From Escherichia coli (GTDB lineage Bacteria; Pseudomonadota; Gammaproteobacteria; Enterobacterales; Enterobacteriaceae), in NCBI RefSeq assembly GCF_030384885.1, contig NZ_CP128614.1: a DNA stretch of 64,000 bases. One strand, 5' to 3'. Each line of letters opens with the position of its first letter. The first letter of the stretch is position 1. Below, piece after piece: positions 3,001 to 12,000 of the stretch. The position numbers are program-made.

Positions 3001-6000
3001 ATTTCAGTGATTTCTTTGAGGACGCTGGTATCGGCATCATGCCCGGCTGCACATGCCACAACAACGCCGGTTCTGGCCGCTTTAAAGTCATTCAGGCCTT
3101 TACGCCAGTCATCATTCGGACTTCCATCCGTCATCAGGAATACAAGGGGACGCCAGTCACCTTTAGTGTCAGCCGTCGTTTTCTGTACTTCTTTGGCAAT
3201 GGAGCTGGCCGTCAGGGTAAGCGCTTCGCCAAGAGAGGTGGTGCCGCTGGCTGTTAGTGCTGGCATCTGGAAACTCAGGAGGTCTGTCAGGGGGACTGCC
3301 TGTCGGGCTGAAGAATCAAAGGTGATCACTGACACGTAAGCCGTTTCGAGTGCATACGGATCCTGTTTCAGCGTGGTAAGCAGCGTCTGAACGCCATTCT
3401 TAACCGCTTCGATAGGCTCTCCGTGCATAGAGCCGGACGTGTCGAGTAGCAGATATACGGGTAAGCGTCTCAAATGTAATTCCTTCTTAAGAGATCGGAA
3501 GAGGAGAGTAGTTTCAGGAAGAGGCCAGAGTTTGTAGATTTGATAAAACGGCACGACATCTGTCGGGTGGAGATTAAATACTCAGAAGCGGCATTAAAGA
3601 AATAAGTTAACCACCATTGAATTACCGACATGTGAATGGCCTCTTATCAGAGAAAAAAATTCAGACCGTACTGGAATATAAATTTCTGAAAAAAACTCCG
3701 GCAAAAATAAACTTTCTTATGTATGAAAATCATCATACATCACAGATCTGCATGAATGGAGTGTAAATCGCCCAAAGATTGATGTGTAGCACAAGAGGAT
3801 GTCAAGACACCAGGTTTTGTAGGCAGAAAGGCGCTGCTGACATTGCGGGAGGAGAATAGATCAAAACTCCGTCACGCAGATACAGAGGTGAAATATGACA
3901 AAACCGGGGTTTTCACCCCGGTCTGAGATTTAGCGTCAGGACTTTTTAGCGCTGTATTCTTTTATCAGTTCATCAACGGAGTGCAGAGCCAGCTTCTCTA
4001 CCGCTTCACTTCGGGTCGAGCCACTCAGCGCAGCCAGACGGTCAATTTTTCTTAAAATCCGCATGCGTAGCGATAATGACACGGCTGTTTTTTTATCCTT
4101 ATCGAGTACGACCTTCCCTGTGGACTCACCGGTTTTCAGTTCAGCATTCTGTGCGAGCGCTTCATTCATCCGGCGAAGGGTCTTTTTATCCAGCTGGCCC
4201 GGATTAACGAGATGGTAGGAATGACCTGCCTTGCTGTATTTGATCTCCGCAGAATATGACTCGCGTAGCTCTTTGAGTGCCCGGGTTAATGTCGGCTCTG
4301 AGCATTCCAGACTGGTTATAATGTCGGCAGCGGAAACGGGCTTGCCGGTGCCCAGTAAGTTGGCAAGCTTAAAAATCCGGGCCTGTCTGGTATTTAATTG
4401 CATCGTAAGATTTAGCCTGCTTAAAGGGTTAGTGGTTCAATAGGCTGAAAAATGAAGGTACTGCTCATCTTTCGAATAACCGGGTGATCGCCTAACGCTT
4501 CAACCGGATCAATGTGTTCTAAGCCTGCAAAATTTACTGACGACATCTGGCTGCGACTGCATTTGCAGGACAGGATATACTCATCCTCCAGATAGCCGGT
4601 CCGCTTACTGACCCGTTGCGTAAAGCCTGACACAATCACGTTGTCGAACGGTAGCGTATGTAAAACGATACCGACCAGGCGGAACAAGCAGCCATGGACG
4701 TGGCGGGCATAGTTTTCGCGTACGGCTTTTTGCGTCATGGCTTTTTCCGTCAGCTCCGTGCCCCGGGCATTAACGCCGTAAATCTTATCAGGGAAATCTT
4801 CAATCTCAGCTAAATCAACATCCAGCAGGACTGCTGATAGCTCCGGCTTTACTTCAAATGCAACAAGCGTTTCACGCGGCCATTCAGTTTCTGCCAGCAC
4901 ACCCGCCAGGTATGATTCGAAAAACGCGGCGTCTGTCCGGAACTGCTGCCGGGCATCTGCCTGAGCCGTGGCGAGCCGTTTTTCATGTTCTTCAGCCTCA
5001 AACTTCCAGTTTGCATACTGTTCGGCCCAGGCCGTCCGTTGTTGCTGGTACCGGTGCTGTCGAAGGGTATTCTCACGCTCCACATCAATCAGCTCCTGCT
5101 GCCACCGGCGAAGATTTTCGGCGTGGCGCTCAGCTTTAGCTGATTCCGATTCAAACCATTTACCCAGAAAACTAATGCCTTCGCTCTCGGCAGGCTTTTC
5201 CGGCAATGCAAGATAGTCTGGCTTTTCTGGACGCACCGGTGCCGGAACCTGAAAAGGCGACGTTCTGTTATGCAGGTATACTGCTTCCAGCTCTGCCCAG
5301 CTGATGCCTGTTTTAGGATCCGGCGTCAGCTCGTGAATATTACGGATTGCGGTCACCGCTGACATGAGATCAGCGGCTTCCTCCTCAAGCGCCTGTCTGA
5401 GCCCCGGGTCGGTAGCCGTCCGGTTCCCACCTCCGGAACGCGCGGCCCGATCAAGCCGGGTACGGTAACTCAGCCCGGTACCGGGCAAGCCCAGATTGGC
5501 ATAGGTCCCCCGGCTTCCAAAAGAAACGGAAGCACCTCTCGGCCCGACACTCAGGCTCGGTGCACCGTTACTCAGGTTGAGGCGAACACCAGGAATAATG
5601 TTGATCGACTTTCTGAATCTGAACCCCATTATGATTTCCTTAATGATGCTGGGTCACGGTAAGTAATCTGATTCCATCAGCGCTTTGCTCGTTCTGTAAC
5701 CCATAAAAACGAGCTCTGTCCAGAATGCCAGCCGCCCAGCGGCGATGTGTGGCGGGTTCACACATTGCTCCCTGCGACTTAAACACGGCCTGGGTAGAGT
5801 TCAGGATCCGCAGAGCGTCAGAATGCTCACCCTGAGTGACCATCAGCGCGTTTTGAATGACCTCTATCTGACCCGGGTGAATGGCCGTTTTCCCAACAAG
5901 CCCATGTGCCATATCAAGAGCCAGCTCTCTGGCCATTACGGCATGATCGTCAATATGCTCACATACGGGCGCGGTCAGGGCAAAATCACGCGGGCCGAAG

Positions 6001-9000: not shown

Positions 9001-12000
9001 AAGCGTAACGGCGATAACCTGTTCAATATGTTGAAGCTTGCCGGTATTACGCAGGGCAGAAAGCAGGTTAATAAAGGTATTACCGGTGGTTGCCTCGTCA
9101 TCAATCAAAACCAGCGTTCGTGCGTTGGTAACACGACGTCTTTTCTCTTCATCATCTGGCAGATAGATCAGATGATCGGTGGCGTGGCTGTGTTCTTCCT
9201 TGAACTCGCAAAGTAACGTGCCATCAACCGGGTGACGGGTAGAGGTCAGATAGACAGATTCACGATGCTGGTGGCGCACTTCATCAAACACACCGGCCCC
9301 TAGCCCAACGGCGGTTTCAGCCATACCGATAAAAAGTACGGGCCCTGTCAGCGTTGCGGGGAACTGGCTGGCAAGCTGTCTGTAGGCCTGCCGCATGACT
9401 GAGGGTGGCACGGGAATGTGCCTGCCGAGTACTTTGCTGACAAACAGAAAGGCGCGTTTCGGGTTACGTCTTTCAGCGATATCAAACAGGTCATCGAGCG
9501 AAACATCACCCTGGTCGCGGGTTACCTGTATCGTACCGCATGAGAGGGTACGGCGATAAATCATATCTTCGAGGGTATCAGACATAAACACGCCTTAATT
9601 CAGATGGTTAGAGAGTGATTCCGGGTAAACGATGACATCTGTGATGGATCTCACTGCAACCGGAGAAAAGGTATTTCTGGCGCTCTGGATCACCGCATCT
9701 TCAGACATCAGACCGAGCTTAAAGGCAGCAAACAACCCGGGAAGGTTCACCCCGCTGTGAAGGGTATAACCCACCCCGCCTGACGGACGCATGTTGGTTT
9801 CAAGCAGCACCGGGTTGCCATTCACATCGTTTCGCGTCTGAACATTCACCAGCCCGTCGGCCTTCATAACCCGGGCGCAGTCACAAGCCAGTTCCCAGGC
9901 GCTTCCTTCGTTTACCAGATACTGGATAGCCCCTTCCTTACGGCGTCCCACGGCTGCGAGTATTTCGCCCTTATCCGCGAGGATATCGACGGAAAATTCC
10001 GGGCCTGGCAGGTACGGCATCAAAACAAGGGGTTTAAACGACTCAGAAGCCGATGCTGCTGCAATATACTGTTGCGGACTGACCAGACGATGTTCGGGAT
10101 GATTAAAGACGGCCATGGGCGAAGCACTGTCATCAAAGCGCCAGAATCCCATGCCATAGATACCCGTCACCGGCTTCACGCATACCGGGCTGTCCGAGAA
10201 CGGCGGGGCCGCGAGGTGCGTCTTTAATTCTGCCAGCGTATTCACCCGCCAGGACGGTACGACCGGGAGCCCGTTTTGCTCCATAAACTGAGCAAAAGTA
10301 ACTTTTTCGTCAGCCAGAGTTAACCAGTCGACGCCTGTTGCACCGGTAGTAAGGGTGGCTCCGGTCGATTCAATGGCTGAACGGTGTTCTTCAAACCACT
10401 GGCTGTTACGGCCAGTATGAATATGGTGGATGCCGTAGGTCTGAATGGTTTCCTGAATAAACTGAAGACGTTTTTGAGGATCTTCAGGTTCAGTCAAAGA
10501 ATAATCGGCAACGGAAAGAATTTCATGTCTTTCGTTACGGTGGGAGGCAAATACGGTAATAGCAAAATTATTTTTTTGTGCAAATGATTTTACCCCCTGA
10601 ATAATATCTCGCTGGGAGGACAAACCTTCCATAAACCAAATTTTCTTGTTCATTTTTTTTAATTATCCGGAACGCCATGCAAATTTATGATTGAGAAGTG
10701 AGTCTATGAGTGTCTACGCTACATGTCAATCATAATATGATTAATAACTTCAGTGGTTATGGAGTGCGTCAGTGTTTTTTTTAGTGCCTTATAACGTATT
10801 GATATTTAAATTAAAAATAGAAAAATGAACACCATGAAAAGGATTTATTTTTGTGTTTTTGAAGAAAACTACCAAAATTTCCCTTGTCAGAGAACTTCAT
10901 CATGATATGATTTTCTTCGTCAGTTACTAAATATACCTTTGATTGTCTCGGTCATTACCATTTTAAGGAATAAAACATGGTTTCATTAAGTAAGAACCAG
11001 ACGGTATCACTCAGCAAAGAATCTTCAGCATTAAGCCAGCTTCAATTCGGTCTCGGTTGGGATCCGGTTAAGAAAAAAGGTCTTCTTGGAGGATTGTTTG
11101 GAGGCAACGACTCAATCGATCTCGATGCTGGCTGCGTATTAATGGACAGCACCGGTAAAACAATTGACACCATCTGGTTCCGCAAACTGGAATCCACCTG
11201 CGGCGCTGTTGTGCACAGTGGCGATAACCTGACCGGTGAGGGTGACGGTGACGATGAGGTGATTAAGGTCAACCTCTCCCGACTGCCTGCAAACGTTGAA
11301 TACCTGGCGTTTACGGTAAACAGCTTCCGTGGTCAGTCGTTCAATGACGTCGAAAACGCGTTCTGCCGCGTTGTCGATCAAACCGGCAAAGAGCTGGCTC
11401 GCTACAAGCTGACTGAGCAGGGCTCACATACCGGGATCGTTATTTCTTCGCTGCGCCGTAATAACGGCAACTGGGACTTTACCGCCCTTGGCCATGCCTG
11501 TCGCGGCCGCACAATTGACGATATGCACTCCGATATCGTTTCAGCGGTTATTCGCTAATGAACCTGACGCCGGGGGGCAATGCCCCCGTTCCAGCCCAGG
11601 AGTTGCGGGTCCGGATCACCTCGGGCGGCCAGGTGGATGCTTCGGCGTTTCGCCTGTATGCCGACGGGAAGGTGCAGGGTGATGCGGACATGGTGTTTTA
11701 TGGTCAGCCACGTAACGATGATGGTACCGTCAGCCTGGTCAGTGAAGGCCAGTACTCAACCTTTACTGTCGCGCTCAACCGGCTGAAACCTGATGTCCAG
11801 AAAATTGCGTTCACCGTGACCTGTGACGGTGGGCAGACGGTGTCCGGTCTTCGTAATCTTTCCATCGACGTGGAGCAAGGGGCTACCGGCCTGGTTAGCG
11901 GCAGTGTCGAACTGAGCGGCCGTCAGGAAGCAGCCTTAATTCTGGGTGAATTTTACCGTCGTAATAATGACTGGAAATTCCGCTTCGTTGCGCAGGGGTT

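Follow-up and report, generated by a model that had tools for sequence, protein, structure and literature searches.

The closest described counterpart of the locus analysed here is the ter system of the IncHI2 plasmid R478, for which predicted TerW operators were published by Kravchenko et al. 2021 (PMC7843439; supplementary TerW.fa). By the same authors' account, the stretch that TerW protects in E. coli (Valkovicova 2011) includes the palindrome, the exact protected bases being relayed second-hand, and a second paper cites Valkovicova 2011 for regulation of the ter operon by TerW. Compared with the R478 motif and with the TerW-protected terZ promoter of E. coli KL53 (Valkovicova et al. 2011, as relayed in later accounts), the two sites that we call O1 and O2 share the plasmid family, the sites themselves, the two-box layout and the proposed regulator, and they differ in nothing of substance. 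The first 50 kb of pKL53-L, the experimental plasmid, lack ter. O1 and O2 are thus already known as published predictions, and the present work provides confirmation and breadth with no new element. Its new points are small: the near-whole-turn spacing of the operators is conserved, and TerW may possess a C-terminal ribbon-helix-helix domain. Our analysis makes it likely that O1 and O2 are TerW operators and that a third palindrome, upstream of terY1, lies outside the system; site identity, conservation, exclusivity and promoter overlap were computed here, and TerW binding is taken from the literature. As in TetR/tetO-type systems, a small repressor encoded within the cluster would act at short dyads over divergent promoters, likely with autoregulation. 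However, instead of a TetR fold TerW has a winged helix and possibly a ribbon-helix-helix tail, it has no apparent ligand domain, and its operators are ~168 bp apart rather than adjacent.

The window, by which we mean the whole 64-kb stretch of DNA analysed, contains the ter cluster typical of its plasmid type, IncHI2, with 100% identity to pSTM6-275 and many others. terW (3936..4403, minus strand) encodes 155 aa and has 100% identity to annotated terW. It is followed by an intrinsic terminator on the same strand (3901..3924; a 10-bp stem with 6 G-C pairs, then a T-run) that is kept in the nearest diverged lineage, represented by locus L006, and in E. coli O157 chromosomes. Upstream of terW lie six biosynthesis-type genes (4421..10653, minus strand), identified by annotation and Pfam as ATP-grasp, phosphoribosyltransferase, hypothetical, StiP protease, HpcH aldolase and DUF4236. 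These genes are tightly packed, with gaps of at most 17 bp, and promoter-like and terminator-like sites inside 4421..10653 are no more frequent than shuffled sequence predicts. The six genes and terW probably form a single operon, and in this plasmid terW seems to end the leftward operon. On the other side of the intergenic region, terZ (10977..11558, plus strand; Pfam TerD, E = 1e-46, and annotation) is the first gene of terZABCDE(F).

A sequence-only reading of this DNA had pointed to a pair of related palindromes in the ATP-grasp/terZ intergenic region, and to one regulator, plausibly TerW, acting at both and at the palindrome before terY1. The first, AATCAT-AAT-ATGATT at 10728..10742 (O1), is a perfect match. 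The second contains the proposed ATCAT-N3-ATGAT dyad, but the interval then given, 10898-10912, is too long by a non-complementary base on either side; the true dyad, ATCAT-GAT-ATGAT (O2), occupies 10899..10911. The published 25-bp sites span 10723-10747 for O1 and 10893-10917 for O2: O1 is the published terZ1_R478 site with 0 mismatches over 25 bp, and O2 departs from terZ2_R478 at a single one of its 25 bp, in the flank. The shared dyad ATCATNNNATGAT (ATCAT-N3-ATGAT) has exactly 2 copies in the 64 kb, where 0.08 are expected, and none of 100 shuffles reached two. On a TerW-box matrix these predicted operators score 26.8 (O1) and 23.6 (O2). The same matrix finds no further box scoring 8 or more in the window, and the strong boxes in 1.0 Mb of related loci are found nowhere but in the terZ/ATP-grasp region. 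A looser search, for AATCATNNNATGATT with up to 3 mismatches, was uninformative (35 matches, 31 expected).

Conservation points in the same direction. All 47 of the distinct orthologous intergenic regions, which come from ~20 genera and from loci selected through TerW, have both boxes, O1 at about -250 and O2 at about -80 relative to the start of terZ. No other elements of the ~320-bp terZ/ATP-grasp region are as well conserved; the remainder is unconserved, and across the orthologues the half-sites of O1 are invariant while its central 3 bp vary. With the match to published sites, this conservation, the overlap with predicted promoters and the protection reported second-hand, the two terZ-region palindromes are very probably TerW operators, and to this extent the proposal of one regulator holds. 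For the third palindrome it is not supported.

That element, ATGTATGA-AAATCA-TCATACAT at 3719..3740 in the terW-terY1 spacer, is present as described, a 22-bp palindrome with perfect 8-bp arms around N6 and ATCAT inside it, but we judge it not to be a TerW box. Most likely it is unrelated to the TerW system and either arose by chance or is specific to a lineage. The window has ~35 distinct places with a perfect inverted repeat whose arms are 8 bp long and whose spacer is at most 10 bp, and 462 bp of the same composition would contain at least one such repeat with a probability of ~0.07. No second copy of the palindrome was found in the window when 3-4 mismatches or spacers of 3-10 bp were allowed. 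Its hairpin fold is unremarkable (z = -0.9 / -2.1), and the terW-terY1 spacer matches no Rfam family, its sole match being IMES-1 at E = 0.69. An intrinsic terminator at 3719-3740 was considered and rejected, as the stem is A+T-rich and the terminator scan returns only the terW terminator at 3901-3924.

It is unlikely that the palindrome serves some other factor or overlaps the terY1 promoter, either as a CRP-like 5-N6-5 dimer site centred at about -61.5 relative to a weak predicted promoter or with its arm TGTATGAT as a -10. The arms are perfect and stay intact in IncHI2 variants of 95-97% identity, which show one spacer change; the weak promoter, TTGCCG-18-TATATT, lies just downstream; and L006 keeps the arm that comes first when the site is read along terY1 transcription. 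However, the second arm and the downstream promoter are not conserved there, and the single copy in the window and the chance probability given above also count against such a site. The CRP consensus core is TGTGA-N6-TCACA. The palindrome is likewise a 22-bp dyad of 5-N6-5 geometry, but its core, TATGA-N6-TCATA, has TATGA/TCATA for TGTGA/TCACA and thus lacks the G/C of the CRP halves on both sides, and the palindrome is not conserved.

We regard it as very unlikely that all three palindromes are TerW sites and that TerW also controls terY1. ATCAT does occur twice in the 22-bp palindrome, at 3729 and 3732, so the half-site noticed earlier is shared as a 5-mer, but neither copy has an ATGAT partner at N3. 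In the palindrome TCAT/ATGA are everted and separated by N6, whereas in the TerW box they are inverted with N3; the matrix score is -14.6, a value equalled or bettered by ~0.5% of window positions; and every published TerW site differs from the palindrome at 9 or more of 25 positions. Its arms are broken in L006 despite better-conserved flanking DNA, and it has no counterpart in 18 other terW-terY1 spacers. Weak TerW-like sites do precede terY1 in Pectobacterium, at about -30 (Kravchenko et al., PMC7843439), and weak matches are found upstream of terY1 in two further loci, L018 (11.7) and L045 (14.1). Beyond such weak, lineage-specific matches, the terY1 upstream regions of other genera contain no TerW box. 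The 'third site' of Kravchenko et al. (PMC7843439) is the weak box ~30 bp upstream of Pectobacterium terY1 and not the 22-bp palindrome, which lies ~245 bp upstream of the terY1 start. By eye, TCTTATGTAT in the window resembles the Pectobacterium terY1 site TCTTATGCAT; we rejected this likeness because the two are ~200 bp apart relative to terY1 and their 25-mers differ at 10 or more positions. A second DNA-binding domain in TerW, if there is one, could read a different motif.

The two operators favored here overlap the best predicted promoters, both from consensus scans. The predicted terZ promoter (10884..10911, plus strand) combines a -35 TTGTCA at 10884-10889, a 16-bp spacer and a TG-extended -10 TATGAT at 10906-10911, for 10 of 12 consensus matches plus the TG; its -10 falls inside O2, and conservation across genera extends to the entire -10 and to GTC within the -35. 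The predicted promoter of the ATP-grasp operon (10701..10729, minus strand) consists of a -35 TTGACA at 10729-10724, a 17-bp spacer and a -10 TAGACT at 10706-10701, likewise with 10 of 12 matches and with both hexamers in conserved blocks; its -35 overlaps O1 by 2 bp and lies within the 25-bp published site. Overlap of the boxes with a -35 on one side and a -10 on the other fits repression, probably with autoregulation. We give very little credence to the converse idea that the conserved blocks are merely core elements of the two divergent promoters with no regulator site. Conservation of promoter hexamers is to be expected, O2 holds the TG-extended -10 and a perfect TTGACA adjoins O1, but one 13-bp dyad recurs at both promoters over different elements, TerW protection of the region is reported (PMC7843439, relaying the original work), and Yersinia has a third copy of the box. 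In addition, the distal half of O1 (ATGATT, 10737-10742) is near-invariant even though its position is upstream of the -35. Promoter function, and not TerW contact, could nonetheless account for some of the conservation seen in O2 (TG-n-TATGAT) and in the O1 flank GTCAA.

The dyad is unlike the OxyR and Fur consensus sequences, a comparison made by inspection only. That a host regulator (OxyR, PhoP or a Fur-like protein) binds the boxes instead of TerW is very improbable: OxyR control of ter is reported in Proteus and Yersinia pestis and PhoP control in Pectobacterium (PMC7843439), but the Pectobacterium PhoP sites of this region differ, being GTTTA-type direct repeats (PMC7843439), and the motif occurs only at ter loci, with no other copy in the 64-kb plasmid window or in ~1 Mb of chromosomal flanks, whereas a global regulator should have sites at other places as well.

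The N-terminus of TerW is a winged helix, with sub-threshold Pfam matches to HTH_11 and HVO_A0261_N and fold matches of the MarR/ArsR type. In the AlphaFold model (pLDDT 86), residues ~104-141 form an extended segment and two helices, and over these residues RHH_1 and HicB-like matches below Pfam cut-offs appear in 8 and 13 of 20 family members, respectively; a match to the aCcr1 family is also sub-threshold. These data raise the possibility of a C-terminal ribbon-helix-helix domain. Family members show no variation in the recognition helix of the winged helix or in the putative ribbon strand. No ligand-binding or inducer domain is evident in TerW, sequence searches returned no solved relative, and NCBIfam has no TerW model.

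We infer repression, autoregulation and oligomeric state, and we envision a scenario in which a TerW dimer, or a higher oligomer, reads the dyad ATCAT-N3-ATGAT. TerW on O1, at the ATP-grasp -35, and on O2, at the TG-extended -10 of terZ, would shut both divergent promoters, and with terW apparently last in the leftward operon TerW would limit its own synthesis. In R478, terW is reported to protect against terZ/terA lethality (Whelan 1997, via a citing paper), which fits a repressor. For Pectobacterium, a separate PhoP-dependent promoter of terW is reported (Kravchenko et al., PMC7843439), and autoregulation through O1 may therefore not be general.

A more tentative extension is that TerW, through its winged-helix and putative ribbon-helix-helix domains, bridges O1 and O2. 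This would form a ~168 bp repression loop over an intrinsically curved spacer of fixed length and would switch the biosynthetic operon in concert with terZABCDE; we consider it possible but doubtful. The length of the spacer is conserved near whole helical turns (16, 15 or 13) while its sequence is free, and it is AT-rich with an AA/TT periodicity of 10-10.5 bp. Control terW-terY1 spacers are also AA/TT-periodic, at 10.75-11 bp, so this signal is only suggestive of looping. Two like operators with a spacer near whole turns are likewise found for the looping repressors AraC (O2-I1), GalR (OE-OI) and LacI; in contrast to these, tetramers or loops of TerW are hypothetical, and length conservation may have other causes. 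If the loop did form, the conserved whole-turn spacing of 16, 15 or 13 would be its signature.

The ter cluster is common on IncHI2 resistance plasmids and in pathogens, including E. coli O157, Klebsiella, Yersinia and Proteus, and knowledge of its operators is useful for designing derepression experiments on the cluster.

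The two palindromes in the divergent intergenic DNA between the ATP-grasp gene and terZ are real and functional-looking, and they have already been described as predicted TerW operators for this very plasmid family. Kravchenko et al. (PMC7843439) list two TerW sites for the IncHI2 plasmid R478 in a supplementary file. Positions 10723-10747, which span O1 (AATCAT-AAT-ATGATT, 10728-10742), are an exact copy of one, and positions 10893-10917, which span O2 (ATCAT-GAT-ATGAT, 10899-10911), differ from the other by a single mismatch in the flank. According to that paper, the TerW-protected region of Valkovicova et al. 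2011 coincides with the palindrome; a 2025 paper cites the same study for regulation of the ter operon by TerW, and Whelan 1997, as cited in PMC4633105, is the source for a protective role of terW against terZ/terA lethality. All three palindromes of the sequence-only reading are present with the sequences it described, although the true O2 dyad lies one base further in at either end. Its proposal that one regulator, plausibly TerW, serves all three is very probably right for the terZ-region pair, which matches the published R478 sites, but is not supported for the third, a 22-bp dyad with a poor TerW-matrix score. The motif ATCATNNNATGAT occurs twice in the 64 kb, at O1 and O2 only (0.08 expected; two copies in 0 of 100 shuffles).

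Both boxes of this pair are strongly conserved. An alignment of TerW was used to retrieve 53 loci, one genome per species, from Enterobacter, Pantoea, Erwinia, Pectobacterium, Serratia, Rahnella, Proteus, Providencia, Yersinia and others. The terZ/ATP-grasp region could be delimited in 47 of these and, with the window's own, yielded 48 sequences (47 distinct), every one of which carries both boxes, at about -250 and -80 from the terZ start. In the multiple alignment the two boxes and the adjoining promoter hexamers form conserved islands and the remainder is unconserved; at site 1 invariant half-sites flank a variable central triplet (AAT, ATT, GTT, ATG, GTG, AAC). With a matrix derived from these sites, O1 and O2 score 26.8 and 23.6, no further position in the 64-kb window reaches 8, and strong boxes were confined to the terZ/ATP-grasp region across 1.0 Mb of related loci. 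Yersinia pestis (L050) and Y. similis (L052) have three boxes, at -206, -105 and -70 relative to the terZ start, in a shorter region of 275 bp. One retrieved locus, labelled Chryseobacterium sp. 18061 (L002, CACSKA010000014.1), carries an Enterobacteriaceae-type ter cluster with a 98% identical TerW; its assembly comes from the same study as that of a Citrobacter isolate (L006) and looks like contamination or mislabelling.

The third palindrome (ATGTATGA-AAATCA-TCATACAT, 3719-3740) lies between terW (3936-4403, minus strand) and terY1, a VWA gene (2835-3473, minus). Its assignment as a TerW site is not supported: about 0.5% of window positions score as high as or higher than its best matrix alignment (-14.6), each published TerW site differs from it at 9 or more of 25 bases, and its TCAT/ATGA elements face outward across a 6-bp spacer whereas those of the TerW box face inward across 3 bp. 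For Pectobacterium, Kravchenko et al. (PMC7843439) did propose three putative sites, of which two separate terZ from the divergent operon and one precedes terY1; their terY1 sites are restricted to this genus and labelled weak. The dyad is retained in IncHI2 variants at 95-97% identity, and the whole of 3400-11200 is 100% identical to many Salmonella and E. coli IncHI2 plasmids, for example pSTM6-275. The arms of the dyad read GTGCTTGA ... TCATACAA in L006, the closest of the diverged lineages (TerW 98% identical), where adjacent DNA is better conserved; in 18 other species the spacer is unrelated in sequence and 157 to 559 bp long. The palindrome has neither an Rfam match nor a notable RNA fold, no further copy was found in the window allowing 2-4 mismatches or other spacers, and comparable palindromes are common there (probability of about 0.07 that a spacer like this holds one by chance). 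It is judged not to be a TerW site and is probably non-functional; a lineage-specific role is conceivable. Beside it, the block CACAGATCTGCATGAATGGAGTGTAAATCG..CAAAGATTGATGTGTAGCA (3741-3800) is better conserved between IncHI2 and L006 than the palindrome itself; it has no good sigma-70 match and may contain the actual promoter of terY1 or some other signal. Of the terW-terY1 spacer, chromosomal ter islands of the O157:H7 type (E. coli, hits H56-H70) keep only the 64 bp adjoining the terW stop, which hold the terminator, so that terW and terY1 are not neighbours in them. Elsewhere in the window, a 24-bp palindrome, GTGATCAAGGATCTGCTTGATCAC, has identical copies at 51727-51750 and 56011-56034, about 4.3 kb apart, and GATCGTGCTATGATC occurs at 43333 and 46402; both probably belong to repeats of mobile elements or of the plasmid backbone.

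Annotation and Pfam place six tightly packed genes, DUF4236 through the Ter-type ATP-grasp gene (4421-10653, minus), upstream of terW, and a strong intrinsic terminator follows terW (3924-3901, minus). Promoter-like and terminator-like sites from the ATP-grasp gene to terW show no excess over shuffle expectation, and the seven genes therefore look like a single operon. The best predicted leftward promoter (minus; TTGACA, 10729-10724; 17-bp spacer; TAGACT, 10706-10701) overlaps O1 with its -35. For terZ (from 10977, plus), the best prediction pairs TTGTCA (10884-10889), across a 16-bp spacer, with a TG-extended TATGAT (10906-10911), a -10 that falls within O2. Given these overlaps, TerW on the boxes would block RNA polymerase at both predicted promoters, and TerW would repress itself should terW share the transcript of the leftward operon.

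Measured from centre to centre, O1 and O2 lie 166-171 bp apart in 49 of the 53 spacings taken from 52 loci and the window. Two unrelated loci depart from this with 157-158 bp, and the outer sites in Yersinia with 136 bp. For a helical repeat of 10.5 bp, the three distances correspond to 16.0, 15.0 and 13.0 turns, which suggests that spacing or helical face is constrained, for example by looping or cooperative binding. The intervening DNA (29% G+C at 10746-10894) is no more alike between genera than shuffled sequence (0.50-0.68 vs 0.59 ± 0.02). It shows AA/TT periodicity of 10-10.5 bp (z = 5-7.5, 16 representative genera), which is not specific since control terW-terY1 spacers are periodic too, near 10.75-11 bp. 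Spacing and intervening DNA are compatible with cooperative binding or looping without proving either.

Sub-threshold Pfam matches that recur in most family members point to a winged helix at TerW residues 5-83 and to a ribbon-helix-helix or HicB-like fold at residues 102-141. In the AlphaFold model (pLDDT 86) a winged helix and a long helix are joined by a disordered linker to an extended segment and then two helices; Foldseek returned MarR/ArsR-type winged helices (E about 2e-3 to 2e-2), and sequence searches found no solved relative. Residues of about 104-141 comprise an invariant K..SLS strand and two helices, with all profile matches below curated cut-offs. We tentatively propose a C-terminal ribbon-helix-helix-like module in addition to the N-terminal winged helix. 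If so, TerW would hold two potential DNA-binding or oligomerisation domains within its 155 residues.
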